Of a stretch of DNA of 64,000 bases, positions 4,355 through 58,133 are shown one piece after another. The translations under genes and the position numbers were made by a program. Numbering within the stretch: the first letter of the stretch is position 1; the number at the start of each line of letters is the position of its first letter. The notes under the pieces were generated by a model. The model was not told the DNA's origin. It worked only from the letters and a program-made list of their open reading frames with translations, and ran no database searches. The stretch is from NCBI GenBank assembly GCA_965247115.1, contig CBDFGR010000003.1, positions 896,001 through 960,000 on the forward strand, written 5' to 3'. The DNA is from Myxococcota bacterium (GTDB taxonomy: Bacteria > Myxococcota_A > UBA9160 > SZUA-336).

Positions 4355-4383
4355 GATCCGGGGGTTCCGGAGCTCCTCGCCCC

Positions 4384-5319
4384 TCAGGACTCGGCGCGGT
4401 GGGCGCTGCTGGCGGCGCCGGAGGAGCGGCGCTCCAGGAAGATCAGGAGGCTGCTCGCCACGTAGATCGTGGAGTACGTGCCGACCGTGACGCCGATCGC
4501 CAGAGCAGCAGCGAAGTCCCGCAGGACCGGGCCGCCGAGGATCAGGACGGCGATGACGACGGAGAGGGTCGTCCCGGACGTGAGCAAGGTCCTGGACATC
4601 GTCTGATTGATGCTCTGGTTCACTACGTCCTCCAGGTGAGTAAGACCGCGCAGGGTGACGTTCTCACGGATCCGATCGTAGATCACGATCGTGTCGTTGA
4701 GCGAGTAGCCGACCACAACCAGGAGAGCGGCCAGGACCTGTAGGTTGAACTCCCAGCCGAGTGCCACGAAGATGCCGGCTGTGATGATGACGTCGTGGAC
4801 CAGCGCAACGACAGCGCCCGGTGCATAGCGCAGATCGAAGCGGAACCAGATGTAGAGGAGGATCAGCGCCCAGGAGGCAACCAGCGCCCAGATCCCGCGC
4901 GCCGTCTGCTCACCTCCCACGCGGGGACCGATCGACTCGATGCGTTGCGGGACCACCTCTACCCCGAGGGCAGTCGAGAGCCCCCCGAGCACTTCGAGCG
5001 AGAGGTCGCGCCGCTGTTCCTGCGAGAGCCGGATGTTCAGGCGGAACGAGCGATCCGCCTCAGGTCCCAGGCGCACGATGACCGCGTTCGGGAAGCCCGC
5101 TTCTGCTGCGGCCGCGCGCATGGTGCCCTCGTCGACCAGGCCGGCCTGCTCCGGCACCTGAAGCTGGATTACCGTCCCCCCGGCGAAGTCGATGCCGAGG
5201 TTGAAGCCGCGCACGACCATGAGCAGAAGCGCCGAGAGCACCACCAGCGCCGAGACGATCCCGAACAGGCCGCCTTGCTTGACGAAGTCGATCTTCGTAT
5301 CGGGACTTACGAGCTGCAT
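4384..5319 (-). CDS. secF: Protein translocase subunit SecF
   Basis: NLGIDFAGG, HDVIIT, GYSLNDTIVIYDRIRE and GTYSTIYVA motifs. Confidence 0.96.
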   Translation of the reverse strand: MQLVSPDTKIDFVKQGGLFGIVSALVVLSALLLMVVRGFNLGIDFAGGTVIQLQVPEQAGLVDEGTMRAAAAEAGFPNAVIVRLGPEADRSFRLNIRLSQEQRRDLSLEVLGGLSTALGVEVVPQRIESIGPRVGGEQTARGIWALVASWALILLYIWFRFDLRYAPGAVVALVHDVIITAGIFVALGWEFNLQVLAALLVVVGYSLNDTIVIYDRIRENVTLRGLTHLEDVVNQSINQTMSRTLLTSGTTLSVVIAVLILGGPVLRDFAAALAIGVTVGTYSTIYVASSLLIFLERRSSGAASSAHRAES

Positions 5320-6887
5320 CAGACCTTCAGGATCTGCGGCGCACGTGCCATGGCGAGGTCGAACAAGAGTCGCGTCACGATCAGGGCACCGAACACGCTG
5401 GACACGATGCCAATCGCGAGCGTGACGCCGAAGCCCTGTACGGGGCCGCGCCCGAACTGGAGCAAGACGACGGCCGCGATCAACGTCGTGATGTTGGCGT
5501 CGAGGATCGTCAACGCGGAGCGCCGGAAGCCCACCTGAACCGCAGTGCGCAGGTTCTTGGAGCGGCGAAGCTCCTCACGGATCCGCTCGAAGATGATCAC
5601 GTTTGCATCGACTGCCATGCCCATGGTGAGCACGAGGCCCGCGATGCCGGGCAGCGTCAGGGTGGCACGCGCCAGGCTCATCGCGCCGATGATCATCACC
5701 ATGTTCAAGATCAAGGTCACGTTCGCGAACCAGCCGCCGACGGAGTAGTACACCGCCATGAAAAGGATCACGAACGCCGCGCCCAGCAGGATCGAGCGGA
5801 TGCCCTGTCGAATAGAGTCCGCGCCCAGGGCAGGACCCACGCTGCGCTCCTCCTCGATCACGAGTGGGATCGGCAGCGCGCCCGAGCGCAGCGCGACCGC
5901 GAGAGCCGCCGCCTCGGCCGCCGTGAAACCGCCGGTGATCTGGCCGTTCCGCCCGATCCGGCTCTGAATGACCGGCGCCGTGACCACTTCTCCGTCGATG
6001 ATGGCCGGCAGCCGCTGACCAATGTTCTCGCCGGTGAATTCCCGGAAGAGCCGCGTCCCCTCCGAGTTCCAGGTGAAGCTCACGAGCGGTCGATTGCGCC
6101 GGTCGTAGCCGACACGAGCATCCTCGAGCATCGCGCCCGTAAGGATCGGCGTCTTCGGAACGAGGAAGGCCTCAGCAACGGAGCCGTCGTCGTTGCGGTC
6201 CACGACGATCTCCGTGTCCTCGGGCAAGCCCTCCTCACCGTAGCGGGCGCGCAGCAGCTCCTCGTTTGGCTCGGATGTGATCACCTTCTTAAACTCAAGA
6301 AACGTCGTTTCTTCGAGGATCGTACGCGCTTGCACCGGGTCGATCTCGCCGGGCATCTGGACCAGGATTCGGCCCGCGCCCTGCGGCGCGATCACGGGCT
6401 CCCGCACCCCGAGACCGTCGATGCGCTCGTTGAGGACCTCGAGCGCCTGTTGCACGCCGCGATCGATCACGCTGTCCCGCCAGTCGTCGGCGAGCGAGAG
6501 GGTCAGCAGCTCGCCCTCTTCTGCGACCTCGAACGTGTCCGTGTCGAAGTTGGCTTCGGCGATCCGGCGCAGACCGGCGAGATCGCCCTCTAGCTCCAGC
6601 ACCTGACCGTCGCGGATCCGGCTGTCCGTGAGGACGACGCCCTCGTCCTCTGCCACCTGCCGCACGACCGACTGCGTACGTGTCACCTCCTGGAGCACCG
6701 CCTCGCCATCGTCGATGCGCAAGAGCCAGTGGATTCCGCCCTGCAGATCCAGACCGAGACTCAAGGCGTCGTCTGCGATCCATACGCTGCCGAGGCGCTC
6801 TTCCTCCGAGAAGAAGTTCGGAACGGCCAGGAGCGCCATCAGAAACGCGACGATCCCGACCAGGATGGTCCGTGTCCTCAGGCTCAC
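5319..6887 (-). CDS. secD: Protein translocase subunit SecD
   Basis: LGLDLQGG, VGPALGADSI, LTLPGIAG and GMAVDANVIIFERIREE motifs. Confidence 0.96.
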   Translation of the reverse strand: MSLRTRTILVGIVAFLMALLAVPNFFSEEERLGSVWIADDALSLGLDLQGGIHWLLRIDDGEAVLQEVTRTQSVVRQVAEDEGVVLTDSRIRDGQVLELEGDLAGLRRIAEANFDTDTFEVAEEGELLTLSLADDWRDSVIDRGVQQALEVLNERIDGLGVREPVIAPQGAGRILVQMPGEIDPVQARTILEETTFLEFKKVITSEPNEELLRARYGEEGLPEDTEIVVDRNDDGSVAEAFLVPKTPILTGAMLEDARVGYDRRNRPLVSFTWNSEGTRLFREFTGENIGQRLPAIIDGEVVTAPVIQSRIGRNGQITGGFTAAEAAALAVALRSGALPIPLVIEEERSVGPALGADSIRQGIRSILLGAAFVILFMAVYYSVGGWFANVTLILNMVMIIGAMSLARATLTLPGIAGLVLTMGMAVDANVIIFERIREELRRSKNLRTAVQVGFRRSALTILDANITTLIAAVVLLQFGRGPVQGFGVTLAIGIVSSVFGALIVTRLLFDLAMARAPQILKV

Positions 6888-43032: not shown

Positions 43033-43077
43033 TGGTGACCCAGGCAGGATTCGAACCTGCGACTTCTTGCTCCGGAG
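43033..43077 (-). repeat. Distal att site: 45-bp duplicate of the tRNA-Arg 3' part
   Basis: TGGTGACCCAGGCAGGATTCGAACCTGCGACTTCTTGCTCCGGAG is identical to 58056-58100; identity ends at the anticodon loop. Confidence 0.97.
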
Positions 43078-43183
43078 AGAAGCCAGGGCGTAATGGCGAG
43101 TAGTCGCCAGTATCAGTCCGTCAATGATATCAGTAACATACGCGCCATTGGTGTCGGCGAGTATTGGCCCGTATCAGCCGGTC

Positions 43184-43208
43184 GGCACCTATTTGGCACT
43201 GATTTTGA
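43184..43208 (+). repeat. Candidate integrase arm-type site
   Basis: GGCACCTATTTGGCACtgATTTTGA, 23/25 identical to 57990-58014. Confidence 0.7.
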
Positions 43209-43214
43209 CGCTGA

Positions 43215-43505
43215 TCAGTGTACCTCGCTGCCCGGCGGGGGTTCCTGTGCGACAGCCCTCACAGCCTTCAGAGGAACGTTGTGCCCCACCTCCGCGGCGA
43301 AGGCCTTGTGCAGCCACCACCAGGCCAGGCTCAGGATCACGCCGTCCCGGACGTCCTCGGGCACGGCCTCGCGGATGCGCTCGGGCTGCCGCTCCATGGC
43401 CGCGTGCACGGCCTCGAGGATATGCCGGGTGTCCGTCTCCGCTCGGTGTTTCCTGTACGTGTCCCCGATCGCGCGGAGTGCCACCTTCGCCCATGCTTCA
43501 TACAT
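43215..43505 (-). CDS. Hypothetical protein (96 aa) downstream of the capsid gene
   Basis: GAGGAG RBS; helical protein-like sequence; co-oriented with the packaging genes. Confidence 0.6.
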   Translation of the reverse strand: MYEAWAKVALRAIGDTYRKHRAETDTRHILEAVHAAMERQPERIREAVPEDVRDGVILSLAWWWLHKAFAAEVGHNVPLKAVRAVAQEPPPGSEVH

Positions 43506-43591
43506 TCCGACTCCTCGCAGTGATAAGAAGTGGGGACTGGCGGCTCAGCAACGAAACCACCCGTCCCCAGCGCAGGCCGCAGCAACGAAGC

Positions 43592-44899
43592 CTACGCTTG
43601 AACTGTCCCAACGCGCAGCGCAGACGGGCGCACGGTCTGGCCACCGAGCCGCGCAAACGGCAAGATGCCGATGTTCGGCGCGTAGCGCTCCACGAGGCGC
43701 TGCAGGCGCAGCTCCATCCTCTCCGCGATGACAAAGGCCGTGTTGAAGTCGCCCAGAATCACCGGCTTGTTCGCGATGTTGTCCGCGTTGGAGAGGAACT
43801 CGGTCATCACCATGGGCCGCGAGAACAGCTGACCTGGCAGCTGGTTGACTGGGAAGATCGGTCGTGAATCGTTGTCTTCCAACTTGAGGATCAGGCCGAA
43901 CGTGTCCGAGTTCATGAGCCATGTGGAGTTTCGGCGGTACTGCGCGGCCAAGTCGGTCCAGATGTTCACCATGCGCGGGTACGAGATCCCGTTGTCCCCC
44001 GCAACGGGGGTCGCGTAGGTGGACGCGTCGCCCACCACCACCGTGGAAACGCGATCGTCCGACGCGATCCCCTCCGGCTTCCCTACGCCGTCACCGAGCA
44101 GGAACGCGAGGTCCTGATCGAGCGAGAAGACCTCGCTGATCAGCGACGACAGCGCGCTCTCAAGGTTCCCGACGCTGTCCTGAAGCAGCTCCTGCGGGAT
44201 CTCGATGACGTCGGGGGACCAGGCGTGCACGGGCACCCGCTCCATGCCGAAGGTCGGGTTGTTCTGCACCGTCGGTGCGGTCCCGCCCGTCACGTACGCC
44301 TCGCCCTTCCAGTTGCCGTCGCCCTGGAGGAGCGTAGAGGTGTACATCTTCGGATTGACCGAGGCCTCGTTGATGGTGGGCCACACAGCGGCCGGTCCCG
44401 ACGTCTGCACGACGCGGGCGCCGGCGAGGCGCACCGCAGCGTTCCCTGCGACGGCCCGCAGGATCTCCTGCCGGAAGTCCTCCGGTACGGTGAAGCCTCC
44501 CAGGGAGTCGTCGCCCGAAAGTAACGCGTGAACCTCGTCCGGTCCTGCGCCGTGCTTCTCCGCCGCCTCGATCATCCGAGTGTGGGAGTTCTCTTGACTC
44601 CCGCAGTGAATGAATGCCTCGAAGATCGCGCGGTGCGCCTCGTCTGGCACACCGTGGTCCTGCTCGGGCGAGGTGACGACGATCGGCCTGTCGACCGGTG
44701 TGGCCATTTCGACTTCGAGCTCGAGTCTCTGCATGTCCGTCTTGTAGGCCCGAACGTCCACCATGGATTTATCGAACTTGATCTGTAATTCCGACCGTCG
44801 AGCGGGGAACTTGCGCAAGTCGTCGCCGATCTTGCGCGCCGCGTCGATCGCGCGGCTGAGCTTCTCCTGTGCGTGCTTGAGTTCAGCTTGTACACTCAT
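43592..44899 (-). CDS. Major capsid protein, HK97 family
   Basis: GGFTVPEDF, ELLQDS, AFLLGDGVGKPEGI, WLMNSDT..LED, LFSRP and ILGDF motifs; coiled-coil N-terminus; AGGAG RBS before ATG 44899. Confidence 0.92.
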   Translation of the reverse strand: MSVQAELKHAQEKLSRAIDAARKIGDDLRKFPARRSELQIKFDKSMVDVRAYKTDMQRLELEVEMATPVDRPIVVTSPEQDHGVPDEAHRAIFEAFIHCGSQENSHTRMIEAAEKHGAGPDEVHALLSGDDSLGGFTVPEDFRQEILRAVAGNAAVRLAGARVVQTSGPAAVWPTINEASVNPKMYTSTLLQGDGNWKGEAYVTGGTAPTVQNNPTFGMERVPVHAWSPDVIEIPQELLQDSVGNLESALSSLISEVFSLDQDLAFLLGDGVGKPEGIASDDRVSTVVVGDASTYATPVAGDNGISYPRMVNIWTDLAAQYRRNSTWLMNSDTFGLILKLEDNDSRPIFPVNQLPGQLFSRPMVMTEFLSNADNIANKPVILGDFNTAFVIAERMELRLQRLVERYAPNIGILPFARLGGQTVRPSALRVGTVQA

Positions 44900-46403
44900 G
44901 TTTACTCCTGCTTGTGTTCCACTCGGCCACATGGCGCGGTGGGGGATCTTCAATGGGTGGTGTAACGTGGACGCGTTCAGCGTCGCGGGAGAAATCCCAC
45001 GTGCCGTTGGCCAGTGTGATCCCGAGGTCTCCGCTCGCGCGACCCTGCGAGGCGAGCCAGGCTGCGCCTGCGACGCAATTCGCCAAGTCGTCATGAGCCT
45101 TTCTCGGATGGTCTATCGAGTCCCTGCCACTCCGGGCGGTTCTCCGCTCCAAGGAACACAATTGTGTTAGGAGCTTCGGGTGGTCGGGAAGCTCGACGCC
45201 GCCGGAGTTGATCAAAGCGAGCAGCTCGATGTAGAGTGCTGACTTCGTAAGCTCGCTAGCGACGTACACGACGTCGTGCTTGGCGAACGCGTCGACCACG
45301 AACCCCGCCGCGTAGCGATCGCCGGAGACCTCACGGCAGTCGTACATGCGCAGCAATGGAACCAGCTCGGCGACGACGGTTTCAGGACTGAACGGTGGTC
45401 GGACCTCCCGGACCACGTCGATGACGACGGGGTGCTCCTCGGACTCGCGGTGCGCGATGGCCAGCGTGAACGAATCCCCGCGACCACCGCTCGGATCGGC
45501 GAAGGCACAATACGAAAATTCTTCGAGTGGCGGCAGCGAGTGGCGAGCCTCGACGACGCAGCTCTCGGCGGATTCGCGTGAGACAAAGGCCGCGATGCCG
45601 TCGCGGAACGTCGCCAGGTACTCAGAGGTGTTTCGCTCCGGGTCCGTTTTAATTTCCTTGGCGATCCACGCTTGATCCAACGTCGGGTTCATTGAAACGC
45701 TACTGGCCTGCCAGACGAGGACCTCCGAGTCATCTACACCGTAGTGAGTCGCGTGCGCGTCGTACAAGACGCCGCTCTTCCCGTACGGGGAGCTGAAGCC
45801 GATCAGCCGACCGCGGGTGGTGATCAACGTGGGACGGACCGCACCGACGATCTCGGTGTCTGGATTTGCCGTCGTGTCGTCCATCCAAAAACCAATTTCG
45901 TCGCATATGGCAGCGACGATCGTGCGGCCACGAATCGAGCGAAAGCTCGAAGTCGCCACCTCGATGGTGACTCCGGTGGTCAATTCAATCGACTGCGCCG
46001 TCTCCCGCACGATGAGCTTTTTCAGCGCGGGACACGAATGCAGCAAGCCTCTCGTGTACTTGAAAACGACGAGCGCTTGCGGTCGATCGGCGCCGAGGAC
46101 CGCGACGATCGGGACTTCGCCTGGGCTTAGGTGTTCGGCGTAGTTCTGAAGCGCCAAAAAAATCGCGATCAGCGCGACAATCTGTGATTTGCCAGCTCGT
46201 CTTCCGCAGATCAACCACGCCTCTCTGTATCCAGCGTTGCGGGGGGCGTTGCGTCCCGTGAACATCCGGAACAGCACGAGTTCCCTACCAGCTAGGGGCA
46301 GGCCGAAGATCACGGCGAGCAGCACTCGCCACGCCGCCCAGCTCTCACCAACGAAGGTCCGGCCGAGCAACCGCGGATGCGTCATGAGGTCGACAACGTT
46401 CAT
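44883..46403 (-). CDS. Terminase large subunit
   Basis: Walker A GRRAGKS, Walker B AAICDE, motif III SSP, and nuclease acidic motifs FADPSGG..D and HDDLAN. Confidence 0.88.
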   Translation of the reverse strand: MNVVDLMTHPRLLGRTFVGESWAAWRVLLAVIFGLPLAGRELVLFRMFTGRNAPRNAGYREAWLICGRRAGKSQIVALIAIFLALQNYAEHLSPGEVPIVAVLGADRPQALVVFKYTRGLLHSCPALKKLIVRETAQSIELTTGVTIEVATSSFRSIRGRTIVAAICDEIGFWMDDTTANPDTEIVGAVRPTLITTRGRLIGFSSPYGKSGVLYDAHATHYGVDDSEVLVWQASSVSMNPTLDQAWIAKEIKTDPERNTSEYLATFRDGIAAFVSRESAESCVVEARHSLPPLEEFSYCAFADPSGGRGDSFTLAIAHRESEEHPVVIDVVREVRPPFSPETVVAELVPLLRMYDCREVSGDRYAAGFVVDAFAKHDVVYVASELTKSALYIELLALINSGGVELPDHPKLLTQLCSLERRTARSGRDSIDHPRKAHDDLANCVAGAAWLASQGRASGDLGITLANGTWDFSRDAERVHVTPPIEDPPPRHVAEWNTSRSKHECTS

Positions 46404-47041
46404 TTCGAAGACTTGGCCTCGTCGATCTCTGTCGCGATGGTGTGCAAGCTCTCAGCCTCGGCGACCTTCAACGGCGTGACGCCGATGACAGCCAGGTGTC
46501 GCAACGTGAGCGCCTGCAGGGTCGAGAACTTCTCCGCGTCCTTTGTCGGTCCGGGGTTCTGGAGGAAACGGCTCATCAGCGCGTCCGCCGCGACCTGCGA
46601 CCGGAGCCACCCGTCGATGGCGCAGATCTGTGTAGTCGAGACGTTCTCCGTTCCACCAAGGTCCTCCACGATCGCGGTCGCCTGCTTGCTACGCATTTCG
46701 AGGAGGGGCTTCAGACTCTCGTGCACCTCTGCGGTTTCGAGGAAAGCGTCCACATCCCTTCGGCGGACGGCATGCTTTTTCTTCATCGCGGCGCTGACTA
46801 GCTTGCCGTGTGCGGCGCGTCGCTCCGGCGGCCAAAATCCCGGGATGCCGGCGTAGGGCGGCTTGCCCAGGCGGACGTTTTGGGCCCTCTGCGCTTCGAC
46901 CCTCTCCTTACTCCAGCCAGCCTCCCTCGCGTCCACCAGGCGGCCTCGCTTGAAAAAATGGACGCCGTTGCCGTCGTAGAGGCCGTCGCGGCTCGGGCGG
47001 CCGTGTTTGTCGAAATGGGTTGGGCGTTTCTGTTTCGACAC
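46400..47041 (-). CDS. Hypothetical protein in the terS position
   Basis: Basic N-terminus and helical C-terminus; stop overlaps the terL ATG (ATGA). TerS function is inferred from position only. Confidence 0.6.
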   Translation of the reverse strand: MSKQKRPTHFDKHGRPSRDGLYDGNGVHFFKRGRLVDAREAGWSKERVEAQRAQNVRLGKPPYAGIPGFWPPERRAAHGKLVSAAMKKKHAVRRRDVDAFLETAEVHESLKPLLEMRSKQATAIVEDLGGTENVSTTQICAIDGWLRSQVAADALMSRFLQNPGPTKDAEKFSTLQALTLRHLAVIGVTPLKVAEAESLHTIATEIDEAKSSK

Positions 47042-47634
47042 TTTTCTGCGTCGCTCCAAGGAGATTTGGATTTTTCGCACGCACTCCCACGCACCGGAGA
47101 GGGCCACCGGCCGAGATCCCGGGGGCCCACTTCGTCGGGATTGCGTCAGGGAAGTGGGCTCCGGCGTCTGAACACATAGGCCGCGGCGCGCCGAAACTTG
47201 AGCGGGACCGAGGGGGGCTCACGGTGTGGACCGAGCAGAGGCCAGCTCGGCGCCCCGGGGGTCGGGGCTGGGGACTCGCGCCCGCCCGCGCTTGCTGCAC
47301 AAGCAAGCGGTCGTGGGCTGAACGCACCAAATCCCTAATGAAATAGAGGTGTTAGAGGTTCCTACCCTCGACGCAGGTGCCAGATTGGTGCCTCCGCGAG
47401 GACCAGAATCACCAGTATAATCAGTTACTTACGGCCTTGGCTCTATTTTGACACCGATAAGTAGATGGTAAAAACACACTACACAAAAATGTGAGCCGAG
47501 CGCGCTTCACGATGACGCCACGGCGTTGGCGCAGCTAGGCCGAGCGGAGAGGGTCGGCGCAGGGAGGAGAAGGGGCTGAGGGGCTCATGTAGACGCGCCC
47601 GTTGTCATGCCGGCCCTCCCATCCGACGTGCGGG

Positions 47635-48459
47635 CTAGGCCCGGATCCCCCAGTTGATCCCGTTGCGGAGGAGGGTCTGGAAGCCCTCGGTATCCCAGGA
47701 GCCGCGAAACGTCCCCGGACTCTTCTCGTCGGGGGAGACGCTGGCGTCCACGAAGGGCTGGCCGTCTGTGGACGGCGAGTGGCAGTGACCCAGGGCGAAG
47801 TACGTCACGCCTCCCTGGCCGACGTCCTTGGTGTAGCCCAGGACCCGCGTCTTCCCGTCTGGGAGCAGCGCGGCGGTGTGGTCGTACTCCAGCCAGGAGA
47901 ACGTCGACGGAGTCGGGTCCTTGGGAAGCTCGGTGGTGAGCAGGAAGTGATGCTTCGACTCGGGGTCGAGCTCCAGGAAGTAGAGCTCATCCATGACCTC
48001 GAAAGACTCGGGGAGGCCGCGGGTGAGCGGGTGCGACCGATCCGCGACGTCGACGCGGAACTTGCACAGTGGCGGGTGGTGGATGACGAGGGCGCCAAGG
48101 GTCTCGTGGTGGCTCCCCTTCTCCATCTTCCGGCCCCCACCGGGGAGTCGCGCGGCCTTTCCGGCGGAGCTGCCGTGCAAGGCGAGCCAGCGACCGCCGC
48201 CCTCGAGCCAGCTCTGGACGAACTCGTTCTGCGCGTCGTTCAGATAGGGTCCGGCCACGTAGGTGACGAGGAACTGTCGATCGGTCAGCCACTGCTCGAT
48301 CGCGCTGAAGTCGTTCGCGACGGTCGCGTGGACCTCTTGCCTTTCCTGCAGGAGCTGGAGCAAACGCAGGCGCGCGTAGTCCATGTCGTGTCCGGCGGTC
48401 TGGCCCGCCGGGAAACCCCCGGTGACCACGTGGACTCGGACGGGTTCGGAATGGCTCAT
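47635..48459 (-). CDS. ThuA-like domain protein (cargo)
   Basis: GGRWLALHG, HPLTRGLPESFEVMDELY and GQGGVTYFALGH motifs. Confidence 0.85.
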   Translation of the reverse strand: MSHSEPVRVHVVTGGFPAGQTAGHDMDYARLRLLQLLQERQEVHATVANDFSAIEQWLTDRQFLVTYVAGPYLNDAQNEFVQSWLEGGGRWLALHGSSAGKAARLPGGGRKMEKGSHHETLGALVIHHPPLCKFRVDVADRSHPLTRGLPESFEVMDELYFLELDPESKHHFLLTTELPKDPTPSTFSWLEYDHTAALLPDGKTRVLGYTKDVGQGGVTYFALGHCHSPSTDGQPFVDASVSPDEKSPGTFRGSWDTEGFQTLLRNGINWGIRA

Positions 48460-48562
48460 CGGACGCTCCTTCTCGCAAGTCGTCGTGCGAGCATCCCACG
48501 ATCGCGCCGCGTCGTCTAGGGAAGGCGACAGGCGCCGCGGGACTCAGCAGGTCGGGTTGGGC

Positions 48563-48709
48563 AGCTCGGTTCCCCTCCTCTCCACACGCCCTGTGTGGAG
48601 TCTCTCCGGGCGAGCCAGCGAGCTGGGCTTATAGCCCCAGCTCGCGGCTCGCATCGATCGAGGAGAGCCTAGAAATCCGTGCTGGTGCGGCAGCTCGCGA
48701 GCTAGCTCG
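48563..48709. other. Candidate replication origin: palindromes and AGCTCG repeats
   Basis: Inverted repeat at 48610-48652 centred on TTATA, hairpin at 48580-48600, and six AGCTCG/CGAGCT copies at the 3' end of the primase-helicase gene. Confidence 0.5.
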
Positions 48710-50759
48710 CATCGGCAGCCCCCGTGGAGGTGAGCTGGACCAGTTTCTTTTTCCGCCCCGTGCCTTCGACCATCTCAGCCCGGCCGTCCTCCACGGCCTC
48801 CTCGATCATCTTCTTGGCCTTCGTGCTCGCTGTGCTGTTGGGGCGGGACTTTGAGCCCGCGGGCTTGGCGTCCATGATTCGCCATGCGATGTCCGATTGC
48901 GTGAGCTGCTCCCCGGGCTTGAGGTAGTCCTCCAGCAGCTTCTCCGGCCGTTTCTTCTCGGGACGCCAGTACCGGATCAGCCCTGGTTCATCTTCCGAGT
49001 CGGCGACGCGGAAGGTGTGCTCCCGCTGGGGCACGGCGTTGCCGTCCACGGTGAGTCGGCGGTGGTGGTGATCACCACCGCGGTCAAGCCGCCACTGAGC
49101 TACGGTCACTGCCCCGATGGCGCTGGCCCCGCGGGCGGAGACGCGGGCGTCGGAGCGGTCCGCGTGTCCCATGTGGTGTACCAGGACGAGGTAGGTCCCG
49201 AACTCGATCGAGATCTCGGCCAGGGCGTCGAGCCAGCCGCTCATCGCGGTGTTGTCGTTCTCGTCGATTTCCAGGGGCTTGAGCCGTGACAGGGAGTCCA
49301 GGAGGACGAGGCCGAAGGGCTCGCCGTGATCGCGGGCGTACTCGAGCAGCTCGCGGAGCAGCTTGAGGCCCTCCTGGTCGAGCGTGCGGATCTTCCGCGA
49401 TTGGCGCAGGTCCTTCCCGATCATCAGGACCCCGTCTTCCCAGTCGGGGTAGCGGGGTCGGAACATTCCAGCGTCCGATCTCTTCTCTGCCATGCGGCGT
49501 GCGACCTTGTCGATACGCCGGACGTCCTGCTCATTCGAGAGGATCAGCACGCGCGTGCCGGACAGCTTCGGTGCCCCTGCCCACGGCGACTCGCCCGTAG
49601 CCCAGGCGAGCCCGAGGTTGATACCGAAGGTGGTCTTCCCCGACTGGTTGTGACCGAGCAGGGCGTGGATTCCGGGCTCGGGATCTAGAAAACCGGGTAG
49701 CGGGCTCTCGGGATCAGGCTGCTTTCGGAGATTGCGCAGCTCGCGGCCGGTGAGGCCAACGTCGTACGGTGAGTTCCGGGGCTCTGCAGCTTCAGTCCGC
49801 ACCTCGCCCTGCTCGGCCGCGATCGCCTTGCGCGCCGTGTGCTCGTAGTACCTGAGAGGTTTCTGCTCCAGCTCCGCCGTCTCGTGCGAGGCCACCATGA
49901 GGGCCAGGAGCTGCGCAGGCGCGACACCCAAGCGCAGGGCCTGCTGGCACATGGCGTAGTCGATGTTGGACTGGTCTGGCAACCCGTTTGGCTTGCGCTT
50001 GGTCTCGCCGACGTCGCGGTCGTTGAAGTACGCGTGGAGCATCTGGAAGCGCTGTTCCAGGATCTCCAGCGTCTCGTCGGTGAGCTTGTCGTCGAACTCG
50101 CCGACGTCCGCCAGCTCGAGTGTTTCGACATCTAGGCGGAAGGGCTCGAAGTCTCCGAAGTCGTATTCGAGAGCTGGATGCCGTTGGACGATGCGGCACG
50201 GGCGGGGCGGGTCGTACTTATAGTTCAGGGAGCCGGGGATGCGCATGCACCTGCTGGCATCCGTCGCCGCCATGTCCCCATCGATGGCCTTCGCGATGCC
50301 CTTCAGGACACCTTCGAACGCGCGCACGTTCGACTCATCGAAGGCGTACGCTTCTCGGAGCCGCCAGTACAGGTGGACGCCCCCACCGGACGCGACGATC
50401 ATGGTAGGCGGTGGCAGGCCCGCGTCCTGGCGGCGCTGCTCGGCCTGCTCGAAGGTGGTGCCGTCAACGTCGCACCATAGGGCGCCGGCCCCGTGGAGGT
50501 TGTCCTTGCCACCTCCACCTGCAGGATCGCGCCACGTCGCGACCCGGATGAAGGGCGCCTCCCCGGGCTCCTGATCACCGAGGTCCCCCACGTCCAGCGA
50601 GAGAGCCTCTTCGGTGCTGAGCAGCCATGGAGGCTTCACGCGTCCGTCCGCGTAAAGCGTGCGCGGCTCGACCCAGCCCTGGGTGCCGCTGAAAAGCGTC
50701 TGGATGAAGACGGGAACGTCGTCCAGATTGACGACATACGGAATTTCGATAGAATCCAC
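48702..50759 (-). CDS. Primase-helicase fusion (RepB-type AEP primase + AAA_25/RepA-like helicase)
   Basis: LWCDVD, SGGGVHLYW and RIPGSLNYK primase motifs; GHNQSGKT, LVLLDSL, LVHH and RGASAI helicase motifs. Start placed at GTG 50759. Confidence 0.88.
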   Translation of the reverse strand: MDSIEIPYVVNLDDVPVFIQTLFSGTQGWVEPRTLYADGRVKPPWLLSTEEALSLDVGDLGDQEPGEAPFIRVATWRDPAGGGGKDNLHGAGALWCDVDGTTFEQAEQRRQDAGLPPPTMIVASGGGVHLYWRLREAYAFDESNVRAFEGVLKGIAKAIDGDMAATDASRCMRIPGSLNYKYDPPRPCRIVQRHPALEYDFGDFEPFRLDVETLELADVGEFDDKLTDETLEILEQRFQMLHAYFNDRDVGETKRKPNGLPDQSNIDYAMCQQALRLGVAPAQLLALMVASHETAELEQKPLRYYEHTARKAIAAEQGEVRTEAAEPRNSPYDVGLTGRELRNLRKQPDPESPLPGFLDPEPGIHALLGHNQSGKTTFGINLGLAWATGESPWAGAPKLSGTRVLILSNEQDVRRIDKVARRMAEKRSDAGMFRPRYPDWEDGVLMIGKDLRQSRKIRTLDQEGLKLLRELLEYARDHGEPFGLVLLDSLSRLKPLEIDENDNTAMSGWLDALAEISIEFGTYLVLVHHMGHADRSDARVSARGASAIGAVTVAQWRLDRGGDHHHRRLTVDGNAVPQREHTFRVADSEDEPGLIRYWRPEKKRPEKLLEDYLKPGEQLTQSDIAWRIMDAKPAGSKSRPNSTASTKAKKMIEEAVEDGRAEMVEGTGRKKKLVQLTSTGAADAS

Positions 50760-50851
50760 TTTAGTAACCCTCTGCTCGTGGGTGGCTGATCTGGAGCCCC
50801 GCTGACCGTCGCGTCGGCGGGGCTTTATCGTGGGAGCCCGGAACGTCCCAA

Positions 50852-51067
50852 CTACTTCCGGCGACGCGCCGAGGCGCGCTCTGTGGCCGTCACGCCTCCC
50901 CTCTCCACGAACTCGCGGAGCGCTGACGGCGAGAAACGCAACCACCGCCCCAATCTGACCGCGGGAAGTACTCCCTGGTCGACAAGGCCGTATACCATCT
51001 GGCGATCTGCGGAGAGCAACCGGGCGACTTGGCGCGCAGTCAGCAGTTCTGAGTCGGGCTTTTGCAT
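50852..51067 (-). CDS. Excisionase-like HTH protein
   Basis: LLTARQVARLL...VY..V..G.LPAVRLGRWLRF pattern. Confidence 0.85.
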   Translation of the reverse strand: MQKPDSELLTARQVARLLSADRQMVYGLVDQGVLPAVRLGRWLRFSPSALREFVERGGVTATERASARRRK

Positions 51068-51230
51068 CTGGCGATTCCTTGAGGGGGCATGGCCCGTGCT
51101 CGCGAGCCATCGGGAAGTCTAGCGAGCCTTCCCCCCTTGGCAAGGTTTACTGACTCTATAAAGATCCATGATGACACGGATCGCCGATTCGTAATAAACC
51201 CACCTATAAGCGCTCTAAATGGATGATTAG

Positions 51231-51246
51231 GTGTAATCCCTTACAC
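51231..51246. promoter_or_regulatory. Palindromic operator candidate in the divergent control region
   Basis: GTGTAA-TCCC-TTACAC in the AT-rich gap between the xis-like gene and the RHH/int genes. Confidence 0.45.
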
Positions 51247-51289
51247 TGCGTGCTTGACCACTGCGATGAATTGAGATACTGGAAACCTA

Positions 51290-51502
51290 ATGAACGACCC
51301 AGAAAATATTGACCTCGGAGGTCGACCACCGTTCCCCCCGGACAAGCTCCGGGATCGGGCGGTGAAGTTCATGGTCACCCGGCGCGAGCTGGAGGCCTTG
51401 CAAGCAGGTGCGCGAGCGGCGGAGCGCAACCTTGCGGAGTACGTCAGGTCGATCGTGCTCACCCGGCTCGGCATTGCCAGAGAGGAGGAAGAGAACCGAT
51501 GA
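51290..51502 (+). CDS. Small ribbon-helix-helix-like DNA-binding protein
   Basis: GGRPP..RDRAVKFMVT..E...LQ..A......LAEYVR pattern; stop overlaps the int ATG. Confidence 0.7.
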   Translation: MNDPENIDLGGRPPFPPDKLRDRAVKFMVTRRELEALQAGARAAERNLAEYVRSIVLTRLGIAREEEENR

Positions 51503-52674
51503 CTCAACAGCGCGGTCAGATGATAAAGGATCCAACACACGACGGTGTGTGGAGGCTCCGCTGGTTCGAAGGTCGAAACTCGAAAGGCAAGAGGATCTAC
51601 CGCTCGAAAACGGTGCATGGCAAGCGTAAGGCTGCCGAGAAGGAGCTGCGTCGTATTCTCCACTCGAAGGACGTCGGCAAGTACGGCTCACCCAGTCGGG
51701 TGACCGTTGACGAGCTGCTCGACAAGTGGCTGGACGAGGCCCATGGCCAGCGTGTCTCCGGCCGCACGCTCGCCACGCACCGCACCTTGCTCGATACCCA
51801 CGTCCGCGAGGTGATCGGACACCGCCGAATTGACCAGCTGAACACCCTGCAGGTGCAAGAGCTGCTGAACGGAATGAGTAGGCGTCGTGGGAGGAAGCTC
51901 TCGCCGCGGACGCACCAAATCGTGTTGCAGCTCCTCCGCTCTGCGCTCAGAAAGGCCCGCACCTGGAACTTCATTGCGCACGACCCCACCGACGACGTCG
52001 AGGTGCCCCGCGACGCCAGCCAGCGCGGTAAGCGACGAGTCTTGAGCATCGAAGAGCTGCGCCGCTTCCTGGCTGAAGCGGGTAAGCGCGATGACCGAGG
52101 GAACTCTACGCGGTGGCTGACGCTCTGGTCGCTGGCGGCTACGACGGGTGCGAGACCAGGTGAGCTGCTGGCGTTGACGTGGGCGGACATAGATTTGGAC
52201 AGGGGTGAGATCCTGATCTGCCGAGCGCTTACCAAGGACGTGGAGGGAAAGCTCCTGGTCGGTCCCACAAAGACCCAGCAGACCCGCCGCGTGTCGATCG
52301 ACACTCCCGTCATCGACACCCTGGCGGCGCACAGGCTCGCTCAGCGTGAATACGCATTGGGGTTGGGACCCGCATACGACCGAAGCGGAGATCTCGTCTT
52401 CCCCACCCATCGAGGCGCCCTGCTCCACACCGCGAATGTGCGCCGCGAGTACCTGGCTGTAGCTAAAGCAGCGGGGATCACGGGTGCGCGCGGACCCTAC
52501 GACTTGCGCCACACCGCGGCGAGCCAGCTCTTGGAGGCGGGTGTCCCGGTCACTGACGTCGCTCAGCGGCTTGGGCACTCCGTCGACACCCTGACCACCA
52601 CCTACGCGCATGCGTTGCCGGATAACCAGCGCCGCGTCGCCGACATCGCCGGCAAGCTTGTCTTCGGGCGGTAA
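51499..52674 (+). CDS. int: Tyrosine integrase
   Basis: TGARPGE (R), PTKT (K), YDLRH, RLGHS and TYAH (Y); N-terminal arm-binding-like domain. Confidence 0.95.
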   Translation: MTQQRGQMIKDPTHDGVWRLRWFEGRNSKGKRIYRSKTVHGKRKAAEKELRRILHSKDVGKYGSPSRVTVDELLDKWLDEAHGQRVSGRTLATHRTLLDTHVREVIGHRRIDQLNTLQVQELLNGMSRRRGRKLSPRTHQIVLQLLRSALRKARTWNFIAHDPTDDVEVPRDASQRGKRRVLSIEELRRFLAEAGKRDDRGNSTRWLTLWSLAATTGARPGELLALTWADIDLDRGEILICRALTKDVEGKLLVGPTKTQQTRRVSIDTPVIDTLAAHRLAQREYALGLGPAYDRSGDLVFPTHRGALLHTANVRREYLAVAKAAGITGARGPYDLRHTAASQLLEAGVPVTDVAQRLGHSVDTLTTTYAHALPDNQRRVADIAGKLVFGR

Positions 52675-53697
52675 TCCGATGGTGCTGAACCGAGAGTTTG
52701 CTTTTCCGAGCTAACGCTCGGATCTGTCGTAAGCTGGCAGACGTCGGTTGATATGATCGAGTTGTGCGGATAGGGGTTCCTTTGTGGCTTACTTCCTCCA
52801 AGGCTTCGCGGTCTTCCTCGGTGTAGTGGCAGGCACAGCCGTAACGATCCTCGTCGGGCTCTACTTCCGCCGAAGAGAGGAAGACGCAGCAGACGCGAAA
52901 TCTGCGCTTTGAACTCGAACTCAATATTGGGAAGATCGAGAAGTGGCTTGAGGAACTCCAGCGCTATCGGGATGCCGTAAACGGGGACTCTCTCCAGACC
53001 TACTTTGGTTACTTCGATCTCCACAGATTCGTGTCCGTAACTATGAACGCAATGTTTCTGTCTGGCCTTCTTTACAGGAAGCTAGACCGTGGAGAGATCG
53101 GCAAACTCCAGATGATAGTCTCCGAATTCTCAGCCAACGGAGAGCAATTCATCACGAGTCAGCTAAACGAGAACAAAGAGGCACTCGAGCGCTGCACGAT
53201 GGAAGGTCATTTGGACCTATGGACCTCCGACTTCAAACAGCGTGCGGTTGCCCACATCCACTTCTGGGAAAAGAAATCGGAATTACCTAGTTTAGGGTCT
53301 TGGCATTCTTCTAGCGAATCCCTTGCTCTTTGAGCTTCGCGATTAGCTCCGCTTGTGTACCCGCGCCTTTCGTGCTGTTACACGCGCCACAGAGCAGTTG
53401 CAGGTTGTCGAAGTGATCGGTCCCGCCTTTGCTCTGCGGAACTACGTGGTCAATTGTGAAGTTGCGGAATGGGAACGCTTCGCGGCATCCCCCGCAACGC
53501 CCCTCCTGCTTCCCGAATAGCTGGTGCTTGTGCGTGCGGTAGCTCGGGAGCTTGCCTAGGTCCGTGCGCTTCGGAATGTCGGAGCGTCGGATCGGCTCGA
53601 AGTTGTGGAACAGGTCAAGGTCGATTTGACGTACGCGGAGCTGTACGAGGTCCACGGCCTTATCGGATATATCGATCCCGACCCATTGACGGTCTAG

Positions 53698-54972
53698 CAG
53701 GCTGCGGAGAAAGTGACTGGTTGAGGGGTGGTCCTTCCGACGAGGGGGTTCACCGGCCGAGGGGCGGGGCGCGATTCCCGGTTCGAACCGGTCTTGGGCT
53801 CCGCTGATCGCGGGGCGGTTTCGCACATGACCTACGTGGCCTCCAGCAGCTTGCGGATCCGGATCAGGTTGTAGGCTGCGGCCGTGAAGGTGAAGACCCA
53901 GCCGACCCGATCCGTGCCGCGGTGTCGGGTCTTGCGCATCAGCCCCACGGTCTTCATCCAGCCGAAGACCTCTTCCACCCGTTTGCGAAAACGCTGACTC
54001 AGTTCGTAGCCCCGGTGGCGCGTCGTCCGCCCGTCGATCGCGCTGCGTCGATTCGTCGTGTTCTGCGCCACGTGTGGGGTCACGCCCAACTCTCGAAGCT
54101 CTTCCACGAACCCCTTCGTGTCGAAGCCCTTGTCTCCGCCCAATGTCCTCCGACGCCCGCCTCCCAGACCTTCCACCATCTCGAGCGCCGCTTCGCGCTC
54201 CGCATATCCCGACGCCTGCGTGAGCTTCGCCGCGACCACCAAGCCGTTCCGGTTCTCCGTCACCACGTGTCCCTGGTACGCGAGTCGGGCGCCTTGGCCT
54301 CTCATACCGGCGAGTCGTGCGTCGGGATCCGTCGTCGACGCATGCGTCTGGTTGCTCCGCTTCTCGCCTCGGAAGTTCACCGTCGGGTTGCCCGGGTCAT
54401 CGTCGTCTCTCCGTTCCTCGTCCTTCCGTACGAAGCTCTTCTGGCTCGCCCACGCCTCGATCAGCGTCCCGTCTACCGTGAAGTGCTCCAACGACACCCA
54501 TCCCTCGGTCTCGGCCTGCTCCAGCACTGCGTCGAAGAAGTGCTCGGCAATCTCGCCCTTGAGCAGCCGGTCTCGGTTCTTCGTGAACACCGTGGCGCTG
54601 AACACCACCTCGTCAAGCTCCAGACCCACGAACCAGCGATACAGCAGGTTGTACTCCAGCTGCTCCACCAGCTGCCGCTCGCTCCGGATGGTGTAGAGCA
54701 CCTGCAGCAGCAGGGCGCGCAGCAGCTGCTCCGGGGGCACGGACGGGCGCCCTACGCCTCTGGCGTAGATCGCGTCGAAGCGCGGCGATAGCCGCTGCAG
54801 CGCCGTGTCGACCATGCGCCGCATCGCTCGAAGCGGATGATCATCCGGAATCCGCGACTCCAGCGACACGTAGCTGAACATCCCGCCCTGAAGCGTCCCC
54901 TGTCCTCTCACGCCTCCCCCTTTGGGGCTCGCTCCCAAGGTACCCTTCGATGAGGAGTTTTTCAGCAGCCTG
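53698..54972 (-). mobile_element. IS5-family insertion sequence (1275 bp)
   Basis: IRs CAGGCTGCgGAgAAAgT and CAGGCTGCtGAaAAAcT; CTAG duplicated at 53694-53697 and 54973-54976. Confidence 0.93.
53832..54911 (-). CDS. IS5-family DDE transposase
   Basis: MFSYVSLE.RIP.DHPLR, YNLLYRWFVGL, VDGTLIEAWAS, STTDPDARL, GGDKGFD and RKRVEEVFGW motifs. Confidence 0.94.
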   Translation of the reverse strand: MRGQGTLQGGMFSYVSLESRIPDDHPLRAMRRMVDTALQRLSPRFDAIYARGVGRPSVPPEQLLRALLLQVLYTIRSERQLVEQLEYNLLYRWFVGLELDEVVFSATVFTKNRDRLLKGEIAEHFFDAVLEQAETEGWVSLEHFTVDGTLIEAWASQKSFVRKDEERRDDDDPGNPTVNFRGEKRSNQTHASTTDPDARLAGMRGQGARLAYQGHVVTENRNGLVVAAKLTQASGYAEREAALEMVEGLGGGRRRTLGGDKGFDTKGFVEELRELGVTPHVAQNTTNRRSAIDGRTTRHRGYELSQRFRKRVEEVFGWMKTVGLMRKTRHRGTDRVGWVFTFTAAAYNLIRIRKLLEAT

Positions 54973-55946
54973 CTAGGCGTTCTGCGGCCACGCAAGCCGT
55001 GGCGCAACCGGAGAATGGATCTAGAACTACATCGCCTTTGTCGGAGCTGGCCTTGATAATGCGGTCAAGTAGCGCCAGTGGTTTCTGTGTAGGATAGCCG
55101 ACACGCTCTTTGGCTCGTGAGTTAATTGGGGAAATGTCAGGCCACAAATCGGCGACCGCCTGGCCAGGCATTTCATCTAGATAGCGCTTCAACTGAGGGA
55201 TCTTACTCTCGGTATAGATCCGACCCTCGTCATCGAGTTGGTTCATCTTGTCTTCCGTCATACGCCAAGCCTTCATGATGCCGTGGAACTCGTAGACGGG
55301 TCCACGTCCCCCTGGAGCGTTCAGATTGTCTAGCCGATACGATCTCCCGTCATTGTCCTTGTGTGTGAACTTTCCCTTGATGTAGTCCGCCGAATAGGGG
55401 ATACGAACCCGGTTGAAGGTGTAGCGATCGCTGTGCGAGTAAAAGAGGATCCTGTCGCTAATCGATCCGAAACGCTTGGCGTCCGCATGGAAATTGAACC
55501 GCTTCCATGTGATTTCGTTGCGGAAGTTGCTTTGCCCGAGAATTGCATCCATGAGGGTTTTCAGATAATGGGACGCAGTAGGGTCACAGTGAAGGTATAG
55601 GCTTCCTGTAGGTTTCAGAACGCGCTTCATCTCGAACATTCGAACAGCCATCATGATGGAGTACGACTTCATGCTGGAACCGTGCGCCAACCCCGCCGCG
55701 TCGATAATCGAGTACACGGCGGGGTTCTGCTCTGCGATCTCTCCGTGCCATGCAAGATCCACGTCGTCTAGCGTCCACGTATCTTTGAACGCTGCACCCG
55801 CTGCCTGCGATCCGATAGGAGCGCTGTAGTTCTTATTCGAGTTGAACGGTGGGTCGAGGTAGATTAGGTCGACACTCTCGGAGTTCATACCGCGCATGAT
55901 GTCGAGATTGTCCCCGGTCCACATGGTCCGGTTCTTCCAGTTGGGA

Positions 55947-56825
55947 TCACTCAATATCAAGCTCAAGATTCGTGTTTGTCTTCGGGTAGGCACGTTGCAG
56001 CATGCGCCTGAAATGGTTCCATTCTATAGATCCACGCATGATCGCCATCACACCGGTTAGATGTCTTTGTAGCGCTGGATGTCCAATATCGGTGGTTAGC
56101 CACTGATGGTGCATTGCTCGGCGACGTCCCGTTTCAGTTTTAGGGTTTAGTCTCTCCAGTTCTTTCCTGACGCCGGGTGCTAGTCGATCCCAGACGAAGT
56201 CGTTTGTGTAGTGACCAACGACACTCGGACGATTCACCTTCATCCCCTTCCATTCCCAGCTACGGAGTCTGAAAATCTCCTTGTAGAACTCATCCGGGAA
56301 CCGCTTCGCCCATTTTGCATGTTCAGCGACGAGGTATTTGTCGAGTATCCGGTTAAGTGCATTCCGGTCCCGAATTTCTTGGTAACTGGTCGCTTCATCG
56401 ACCAAGGCAATGATGCCTACGATTGCTAGTCCCCGCAGAAGAACTTCACAGGCCGCCGCAGTACGCGCCTGTGCTGGCATGAGCACACCATCTTTTCTGG
56501 CGCGGAGGTACACTTCACATACTTTAGGGAGCAGTTCTGCCTTATAGCCATAAGCTTGTCCACGCCCAGGAATTGCAAACTTTATACGCCTGCTCGAAAC
56601 GGCTAAGTCTTTGTCTACATAGGGTTTTAGCGTCTCTGACGCGAGAAATGGGGCGATCTCCTCGAAACGGGAACCTCGGCCGTGAGGCCGAACTGATCGG
56701 TCAAGTGCTCGTAGAAAAGACGATTGTGTGAGTATGCGGGTGCCGTCATTGAGCACCGCACACTCGACGATAATGGGGCCAATATGCAGCTCGCCAGTAT
56801 GTGTTGCCTTGGGAAGGATGCTCAT
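55947..56825 (-). CDS. P63C domain protein
   Basis: CAVL.DGTR, GIIALVDEATSYQ, WAKRFPDEFYKEIFRL and HHQWLT.DIGHPAL motifs. Confidence 0.88.
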   Translation of the reverse strand: MSILPKATHTGELHIGPIIVECAVLNDGTRILTQSSFLRALDRSVRPHGRGSRFEEIAPFLASETLKPYVDKDLAVSSRRIKFAIPGRGQAYGYKAELLPKVCEVYLRARKDGVLMPAQARTAAACEVLLRGLAIVGIIALVDEATSYQEIRDRNALNRILDKYLVAEHAKWAKRFPDEFYKEIFRLRSWEWKGMKVNRPSVVGHYTNDFVWDRLAPGVRKELERLNPKTETGRRRAMHHQWLTTDIGHPALQRHLTGVMAIMRGSIEWNHFRRMLQRAYPKTNTNLELDIE

Positions 56826-57718
56826 TGCGTTACTCCCAGTCCGCGAGTGACGGTAAGGTCGAAGGCTTCGAAGGGATCAGCCTTCCGTAGGTTGTAGCGG
56901 TAGCAGAACTCGTCCACGTAGCGCTGCAAGTGCTTCCGGCTTACGCTGTGGAACTGTCCGAACATGCCGCGCTTTAGGAGAGCCCAAAACCCCTCAATCG
57001 TGTTGGTGTGAATGTCGCCGTCTACGTACCAGTCTTGGTGCTTGATTACAGCGTGCGGCAGAATCCTGGCCATTCCGAGATAGGCTTTGTACTCGTCTGT
57101 AATCAAGCTGGACCGCGTGGTATCGATGCGCTCGCGAACGAAGGCGCGCATGTGGCGGCCTTTCATCTTGTCCTTAGCCACGGCCTTCGCCGTTACCTTG
57201 CCCTCACGCTCTACAGCTCCAATCACGGGCGCTTTCTCGGTGCCTCGGCCTCTCTTATGCGTACCGCCCGGCCCTGTGCCCTTGGTGCCTCTTCTGGGCT
57301 TCCCGCCGACGTAGGTTTCGTCCATCTCGATGATGCCTGTAAGCAGGTTGCGCTGTTCTGCTTGGGTCATGGCCTTGCGGATTTGCATCGAGATCCGCCA
57401 AGCAGTGTTCTTATTCACGCGGAGGTCACGAGAGAGCTGAAGTGCCGACAGGCCCTTTCTAGCGTTCAGCATGAGCATGATCGCCAAGAACCACTTTTGC
57501 ATCGGCATGTGCGTATGGTGAAAGATCGTGCCGACCGTCACGCTGAAAGAGGTCTTGCAGTCGTAGCACCGATGCCGTCGGCGCTTGTCGTTACTGCGAG
57601 CCGTATTGACCGATCCGCAATAAGGACACGCTACCTCGTCGCCCCAGCGAGTCGCCTCCAGGTGAGCGATGCAATCCGCTTGTGTTGGAAAGCGCTCGAA
57701 AATCCCTATGATGTCCAC
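56822..57718 (-). CDS. IS1595-family transposase
   Basis: Zinc ribbon CPYC...CYDC, EMDETYVGG, ITDEYKAY, HTNTIEGFW and YVDEFCYRYN motifs. Confidence 0.95.
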   Translation of the reverse strand: MDIIGIFERFPTQADCIAHLEATRWGDEVACPYCGSVNTARSNDKRRRHRCYDCKTSFSVTVGTIFHHTHMPMQKWFLAIMLMLNARKGLSALQLSRDLRVNKNTAWRISMQIRKAMTQAEQRNLLTGIIEMDETYVGGKPRRGTKGTGPGGTHKRGRGTEKAPVIGAVEREGKVTAKAVAKDKMKGRHMRAFVRERIDTTRSSLITDEYKAYLGMARILPHAVIKHQDWYVDGDIHTNTIEGFWALLKRGMFGQFHSVSRKHLQRYVDEFCYRYNLRKADPFEAFDLTVTRGLGVTQ

Positions 57719-57766
57719 GACGTATTCCCCTTGCCTGTGCCGATTTGGTTTCCTTTGTCAGAATCC

Positions 57767-57795
57767 AATATGGCGCAGGAAAGGGGGTATGTCAA
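57767..57795 (-). promoter_or_regulatory. Sigma70-type promoter of the IS1595 operon, with the -35 inside the terminal IR
   Basis: Minus strand reads TTGACA-N17-CATATT. Confidence 0.65.
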
Positions 57796-57989
57796 GACCC
57801 TAAACTAGGCAATTCCGAAAGAAATTCCAAGAGCACAAACTCACCCTCGCGGAGATCGCTGGGAACCTCAGCTGAGAGGACTCTTACAACGCGAACTCTT
57901 CGACCCGGGGTCGCATATGGCCTGGCGCTCTAGGATTGCTCCTGACGGCCGCGCAGGTTCGGCTCCGGCTGGCACAGGCTTCGACAATA

Positions 57990-58014
57990 GGCACCTATTT
58001 GGCACCCATTTTGA
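57990..58014 (+). repeat. Candidate integrase arm-type site
   Basis: GGCACCTATTTGGCACccATTTTGA, matching 43184-43208. Confidence 0.7.
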
Positions 58015-58055
58015 ACCGGGTGGCAGGGGCGCCTCTCGTAAGTCCCTATCGCCAT

Positions 58056-58133
58056 TGGTGACCCAGGCAGGATTCGAACCTGCGACTTCTTGCTCCGGAG
58101 GCAAGCGCTCTATCCAGACTGAGCTACTGGGCC
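58056..58133 (-). tRNA. tRNA-Arg(CCG)
   Basis: GGCCCAG acceptor stem, TAGCTCAG..GGATAGAGC D arm, CTTGC-CTCCGGA-GCAAG anticodon arm, GGTTCGAATCC T loop and encoded CCA. Confidence 0.97.

Follow-up and report, generated by a model that had tools for sequence, protein, structure and literature searches.

We analysed a 64,000-nucleotide stretch of DNA (the window) from a Myxococcota bacterium (assembly GCA_965247115.1, contig CBDFGR010000003.1, positions 896,001 to 960,000 of the forward strand), in which positions 53278-57817 are occupied by an IS1595-family cargo insertion sequence (IS), that is, a transporter IS (tIS). One of its passengers is a gene in which a beta-class amino-methyltransferase is fused to an HNH nuclease domain, and the intact form of this fusion is, judging from sequence, on balance probably a one-protein restriction-modification (RM) enzyme. 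This reading is based on the anatomy of the fusion, the selection acting on it, the two alternative nuclease tails of the family, the usual lack of a companion methylase, and the analogy with enzymes in which both activities share one recognition domain. The copy in the window is itself split by a nested IS5-family element, which likely inactivates its enzyme.

The preliminary description of the window had delimited the element by inverted repeats (IRs) and an 8-bp target site duplication (TSD), and these boundaries were borne out: the IRs (53278-53306, downstream of the operon; 57789-57817, upstream of tnpA) agree at 27 of 29 positions and both start with CGGAATT, and the duplication AAAGAAAT lies just outside them on both sides (53270-53277 and 57818-57825). 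When the bases of the 7-kb region were shuffled 30 times, the top repeat-plus-duplication score was 17/29. Both ends fit CGGnnTT, the end motif of the ISNha5 subgroup, to which the element may belong. The transposase passes PF12762, PF12760 (N-terminal zinc ribbon) and NF033547 (207 bits, cut-off 75) and, with the terminal IRs and the 8-bp TSD, places the element in the IS1595 family as had been claimed; the name transporter IS follows from the two passengers within the IRs and from the relatives with broken or missing passengers that occupy many sites. Without the nested IS5 the element measures 3,261 bp, and its non-IS5 part has a G+C content of 55%, compared with 66% for the genome. It is single-copy in its genome. 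Neither an empty site nor a second copy was found in its own genome or in 40 relatives, the latter giving no notable DNA match, and there was no RNA run among the sequencing runs listed for the element.

Three genes follow one another on the minus strand: tnpA (56822-57718; motifs EMDE, TDE and NTIEGFWALLK), a gene encoding a 292-amino-acid P63C-domain protein (55947-56825; PF10546, E 1.4e-34), and the fusion gene. The 5' piece of the latter (54977-55954; PF01555, E 1e-35) begins at a TTG codon at 55954 and encodes the methyltransferase, with DPPF, a variable recognition region at about amino acids 151-280 and DPFSGCAT; the 3' piece (53311-53693; PF14279, E 2.7e-15; PF01844, E 5.5e-14) encodes the end of the methylase fold, a linker and a zinc-type HNH domain. 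The gene overlaps noted earlier measure 4 bp (ATGA, tnpA/P63C) and 8 bp (P63C/methylase start), and the HNH stop codon (53311-53313) is indeed close to the left IR, 4 nt short of it. The promoter proposed with its -35 hexamer in the IR was located as a predicted sigma-70 promoter, TTGACA-17-CATATT (57767-57795, minus strand; -35 within the right IR). Promoter-type sites alone occur at chance level (2 observed, 1.9 expected), but two relatives with a transposase identity of 71-72% (L246 and L247) retain both hexamers and the 17-nt spacing on inspection by eye.

The IS5 that splits the fusion gene, not named in the finding text of the preliminary description, lies at 53698-54972 on the minus strand (53694-54976 with its CTAG duplication; NF033581 above cut-off) and is present in 28 copies in the genome, each with at least 99.9% identity. 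Its removal in silico yields a single stop-free frame of 454 amino acids from the TTG start, which agrees with the protein reconstructed earlier: DPPF ahead of DPFSGCAT, the variant of motif I, then the zinc-binding HNH signature CxxC..DH..N..CxxCN. With the IS5 in place the frame terminates at 330 amino acids, just beyond motif I, so this broken copy is a poor choice for experiments. Separately, a 171-amino-acid frame (53311-53826) begins within the IS5 and reads into the HNH piece; in principle, it would allow an HNH fragment to be produced on its own. Contigs of run X1, a possible source sample, cover both element ends and both IS5 junctions with zero differences. Low-depth contigs with 85-88% likeness were obtained from runs of three other studies: those of X4 and X7 span the IS5 site without IS5, an X5 contig runs on past the site with other sequence, and one X5 contig (5 differences in 260 bases) exits the right IR into another flank. 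These contigs support, short of proof, a mobile element that is intact elsewhere.

The fusion is not peculiar to this element but belongs to a large family whose intact members are widespread. Loci were chosen by tblastn matches to the HNH piece, and conservation was counted without an HNH-motif filter; among 569 pattern hits from 4 of the 64 parts of the genome collection, 526 were relatives, and the best 80 genome loci were kept alongside the best 80 metagenome loci. Of these genome loci, 73 have an HNH domain and 70 an intact fused frame, confirming that the fused gene is genuine; 27 of the metagenome loci have an HNH domain. The HNH residues (C,C,D,H,N,C,C,N) are complete in 86 of 89 intact loci and in 110 of the 114 proteins longer than 380 amino acids among the 119 best database relatives (196/203 in total), and the methylase motifs in 87/89 and 111/114, respectively. 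Over 14 disjoint pairs, the ratio of nonsynonymous to synonymous substitution rates (dN/dS) was 0.22 for the HNH domain and 0.23 for the methylase core. Loss of the HNH catalytic residues had been named as a possible refutation; these comparisons of sequences indicate instead that the residues are under purifying selection. The near-invariance of the His that serves as general base and of the Asp and Asn that bind metal, and an HNH dN/dS equal to that of the core, argue against an orphan methyltransferase in which the HNH domain merely aids DNA binding and methylation shields the element or host from other restriction or alters expression. We consider this alternative unlikely, although, among solved structures, solitary beta-class methylases (M.BceJIV, CcrM) come nearest to the fusion in sequence and copies occur on viral contigs (full length in 3 of 6 matches).

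The structural model of an intact relative (P0003; predicted local distance difference test, pLDDT, 90) has a beta-class methylase fold (that of M.BceJIV, RsrI, CcrM and Type III Mod proteins including EcoP15I Mod), with M.BceJIV matched at Z 27, root-mean-square deviation 2.5 and 242 aligned positions. Its HNH domain resembles those of the Cas9 type (Z about 8.5, 76-78 aligned), and the HNH piece weakly matches IscB/Cas9 models (42 bits, cut-off 175). An RNA-guided, IscB-like nuclease carried on a transposon is nevertheless extremely improbable, and membership of the IscB/OMEGA group was rejected: the match is limited to the HNH domain, no RuvC family was matched, non-coding DNA in the element amounts to only about 70 nt, and the Rfam search of the region returned one chance match (E 0.9) and a tRNA outside the element.

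The part of the protein that varies is the recognition region. Greedy clustering split its 90 sequences, some few being duplicates, into 63 clusters, and mean identity was 19% in this region compared with 69% in the methylase core and 56% in the HNH domain. In two differently named taxa (L025 and L034), the transposase and the gene are 96-98% identical at the DNA level save for one swapped segment of about 170-210 bp. We infer that the central region is a target-recognition domain which would direct both activities to one DNA site; since both would share it, swaps would change specificity safely. In the intact enzyme, the methylase would mark host sites on an amino group, N6-methyladenine (m6A) being likelier than N4-methylcytosine (m4C), probably as a dimer; beta-class enzymes such as EcoP15I Mod are dimers. 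Incoming DNA would be cut by the tethered HNH domains close to sites that lack the mark, and a double-strand break would need two HNH domains or two bound sites, as in MmeI-type enzymes.

The nuclease end of the protein also differs within the family. All 30 non-HNH tails scanned (of 42 listed) match Mrr_cat, of the PD-(D/E)xK type, in the same slot as HNH, and in a methylase-core tree (FastTree, midpoint root) all 86 HNH forms fall in one clade (support 0.785), apart from 47 others. The Mrr-tailed sisters and the single HNH clade thus indicate that two nuclease folds, unrelated to each other, have occupied this slot. Only 6 of 73 loci have another methylase-like gene within 6 kb. Two further neighbourhoods were recorded: in two Phototrophicaceae loci (L030, L040) the fusion is immediately preceded by a RhuM-family gene, and in genome G000 a long sister methylase with an Mrr-like C-terminal tail is present twice (C2:768441-769397 and C3:1183659-1184615), each near a transposase-like open reading frame (ORF).

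The preliminary description had suggested counting IS1595-linked homologues. The linkage exists, an IS1595 transposase lying within 6 kb at 21/80 genome and 6/80 metagenome loci; it is not general, since 53 of the 73 HNH-bearing genome loci have no such transposase within that distance. IRs with an 8-bp duplication enclose both genes at 12 genome loci, three of them from one genome (15 repeat pairs were flagged, of which L026, with IS1-type ends, and L034 and L060, apparently unrelated, were excluded). IS linkage as the mark of one lineage was rejected: 18 linked tips among 66 required 16 changes (shuffle mean 16.0), so linkage is scattered on the tree. The idea that solo copies are non-autonomous IS1595 remnants was also discarded, as only 1 of 50 was flanked at both ends by a nearby short IR (control 0/50). 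The fusion has several vehicles, of which IS1595 is one.

These solo copies bear on a rival reading, a selfish site-specific nickase-methylase whose nicks would promote recombination, recognition swaps and transposase-free spread, with little anti-phage effect. The many HNH-bearing loci lacking a nearby transposase, often between housekeeping genes, the near absence of IR pairs around solo copies, the mosaic recognition swaps and the presence of a small nicking HNH (4h9d) among the structural matches all speak for it. It appears rather doubtful to us: a hypervariable recognition region is a trait of shared-domain restriction enzymes, sister forms hold a different nuclease fold in the same slot, and the neighbours show no conserved insertion site, unlike those of homing elements.

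Units of tnpA plus fusion transpose in a related genome (G225), which corroborates the self-mobility proposed for the element. Among 64 matching segments in G225, 17 regions were retrieved (L200-L216), 15 of which have IRs with 15 different 8-bp duplications; some copies are 99.9-100% identical. The fusion is broken in 10 of the 17 copies, and nine of these ten lie within complete IRs with distinct TSDs. As broken copies still transpose, this burst argues against the role in element maintenance that had been suggested for the module. Two G225 copies sit in elements with different, IS1-like ends (the IS1 label is derived from L026, where these same ends are accompanied by a PF03400 match), and one of them is 94% identical to IS1595-borne copies, indicating that the cargo switches vehicle. 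As a whole, G225 holds a burst of IS1595 and IS1-type elements with methylase-HNH genes, several recognition variants among them and most of them frameshifted. In genome G223, one 467-amino-acid gene is present in three copies, one with clear ends. Other passenger-bearing IS1595 elements were also observed: a second transporter in G000 (L012, L013; C2:778100-781200, C3:2495900-2499000), which is 3,103 bp long, has perfect 24-bp repeats, occurs twice with a different duplication each time, and carries two other ORFs besides a methylase-like gene; L011 (3,088 bp); and L014 (2,520 bp).

An IS1595 transposase is near 21/80 genome loci and P63C is a neighbour of the fusion at none of the 80 (1/80 metagenome loci); the three genes are therefore not a fixed system, contrary to the single module described earlier. 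A coupled addiction module maintaining the element, with P63C regulating the enzyme, is accordingly very unlikely. The genes do overlap behind a single predicted promoter, the order tnpA-P63C-methylase recurs in L145, L223 and L224 (the L224 methylase being Mrr-tailed), contigs of X4 and X5 bridge the P63C-methylase junction, and L218 contains (3970-6099) a 2,130-bp transposase-less element in a phage packaging region, with CGGAAT ends, an 8-bp duplication, P63C and a methylase. Against these observations stand the absence of P63C beside 80/80 genome and 79/80 metagenome loci, the persistence and transposition of broken copies, survival of the IS5 insertion in the window, and the three genomes among 50 that gave a P63C match (G519, G222, G516), in which it lies directly behind tnpA with no methylase in the regions read.

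P63C goes with tnpA, and the suggestion that it regulates the enzyme was left unsupported; it is more likely a separate passenger of the transposase gene, outside the enzyme. It is a recurrent IS1595 passenger, found in temperate phages too: full-length relatives occur in 61 phage records, and on viral contigs an IS1595 transposase is nearby in 5 of 8 matches. In phage SPN9CC, the relative (L257:2171-3400) lies behind the cI repressor, the slot that bstA occupies in BTP1, which makes P63C a candidate anti-phage protein family. BstA is a prophage abortive-infection protein of similar size (according to the accessible part of PMC8585504), and about 70 N-terminal amino acids are weakly alike (BLASTP E 0.004; hhalign probability 7%, with one BstA sequence). 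Sequence similarity is otherwise marginal and BstA gave no P63C match; membership of the BstA family was rejected for want of homology over both domains, an Atlas score of 0.87, short of the 0.9 mark, being a lead only. A weak match to an antirepressor family leaves regulation of tnpA by P63C as a possibility. The window P63C and seven of eight relatives had no PADLOC match, the protein had no sequence match in the PDB, its single-sequence fold was too poor to use (pLDDT 43), and no description of it was found in the literature.

Several observations weigh against the interpretation of the fusion as a restriction enzyme. A single HNH site may only nick. Ten of the 17 G225 copies are broken, as is that of the window, so selection to keep the gene appears weak on the transposon, and the pair L047/L083 has a relaxed HNH domain. 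Most other copies are solo, many of them among housekeeping genes and not in defence clusters. The defence-model search called for in the preliminary description was run, and PADLOC returned separate methylase or HNH models and none spanning the whole fusion; with its current models the protein registers as a lone methylase only. The same 30 Mrr tails have a second match, to a family that bears the name 'inactive REase'. In temperate Streptomyces phages the sister form is present whole, Mrr tail included, which fits prophage defence but also roles other than defence; the notion that phage relatives drop the nuclease was itself ruled out, the single phage gene examined retaining its Mrr tail. 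Finally, the combined enzymes covered in the accessible part of a Type II review are gamma-class, with one alpha-class exception (PMC4081073).

The element is inserted in a 15-kb island (window 43033-58106) at a tRNA-Arg(CCG) gene, with a 49/51-bp att repeat and genes encoding an integrase, an excisionase, a primase-helicase, a large terminase and a major capsid protein, a content that suggests a phage-satellite-like nature. It occupies the accessory slot between the integrase and the tRNA-Arg(CCG), where it interrupts a plus-strand gene (5' part 52784-53277, with a frameshift near 52880; 3' remnant 57826-57875). Homologues of this gene (32 matches, the best with 61-64% identity; about 180 amino acids, hydrophobic N-terminus) continue through the insertion point, which confirms the insertion site. 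Neither PHROG nor PADLOC assigned the gene to a family, and Atlas gave no useful match; it lies next to the integrase and may be an accessory or defence gene.

A broader interpretation can be offered only tentatively. The fusions would form a large undescribed class of 400-480 amino acids, each a methylase akin to Type III Mod whose recognition domain can be exchanged and in which a plug-in slot for an HNH or Mrr-type nuclease replaces Res, shuttled across phyla by IS1595 and IS1-type elements; P63C, as an anti-phage protein of the BstA slot, would act independently of the enzyme, and the element of the window would be a two-weapon defence transposon in a phage satellite. If active, the fusion would be an RM architecture roughly half as large as MmeI, with natural recognition variants numbering in the dozens (the 63 classes in 90 sequences given above); it could supply new specificities and would put re-targeting through domain swap to a natural test. 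The G225 elements offer a natural system for the study of cargo exchange. Records named Poribacteria, Poriferihabitaceae or Porisulfidus, names linked to sponges, are the source of many relatives. For this reason, the family, if active, could account for some of the excess in restriction and methylase genes of sponge microbiomes that is described in the accessible part of PMC5735121.

Transporter ISs with methyltransferase passengers and RM genes in transposon-like units have been published; for the architecture of the fusion, a likely RM enzyme by prediction, we found no description in the literature, and REBASE, ISfinder and Siguier et al. 2009 may list members. Neither the Type IIC section of PMC4081073 nor the accessible part of PMC12707154 lists a beta-class methylase-HNH enzyme. 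As in the tISs of Siguier et al. 2009, as cited in the available portions of PMC11891212 and PMC8101967, passengers lie within the ends, and methyltransferase passengers are known, such as that of IS220 of the IS1380 family. The element shares with them the zinc-ribbon DDE transposase, the terminal IRs and the 8-bp duplication that is the rule for the IS1595 family (PMC8101967); its passengers, P63C and the methylase-HNH fusion, are not named in those portions. In the units of Furuta et al. 2010, RM genes also lie between IRs with 8-bp target duplications, but those units have no transposase of their own and carry other enzyme types (accessible part of PMC2853133).

The enzymes of Types IIC, IIG and IIL (MmeI, Eco57I, BpuSI, BtgZI) provide the logic of shared recognition and the radiation of specificities (available portions of PMC4081073 and PMC4833311). 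Like them, the fusion joins methylase and nuclease in one chain with one predicted, diversified recognition domain and usually no companion methylase. The single polypeptide of Type IIC is present at 70/80 genome loci, the frame in the window being split by IS5, and the rarity of a second methylase-like frame (6/73 loci within 6 kb) agrees with Type IIL. Type IIG as defined for gamma-class enzymes in the accessible part of PMC4081073 was rejected, as the variable region lies between DPPF and the motif I that follows it, and the fold is beta-class. Unlike the known combined enzymes, which in that source mostly have an N-terminal PD-(D/E)xK nuclease and a gamma-class methylase (BtgZI being alpha-class with a C-terminal PD-(D/Q)xK), the fusion has its beta-class methylase first and its HNH or Mrr-type nuclease last, in about 400-480 amino acids compared with the 919 of MmeI. 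A Type III RM system was also rejected, as no Res-like helicase gene was found in the element or among 105 neighbouring ORFs of 54 loci. In fold, motif order and variable central region, the fusion resembles Type III Mod proteins (EcoP15I, HP0593, Mbo45V) and solitary beta-class methylases (M.BceJIV, M.RsrI, CcrM); it differs from them in having a small nuclease domain in cis and no Res helicase-nuclease partner.

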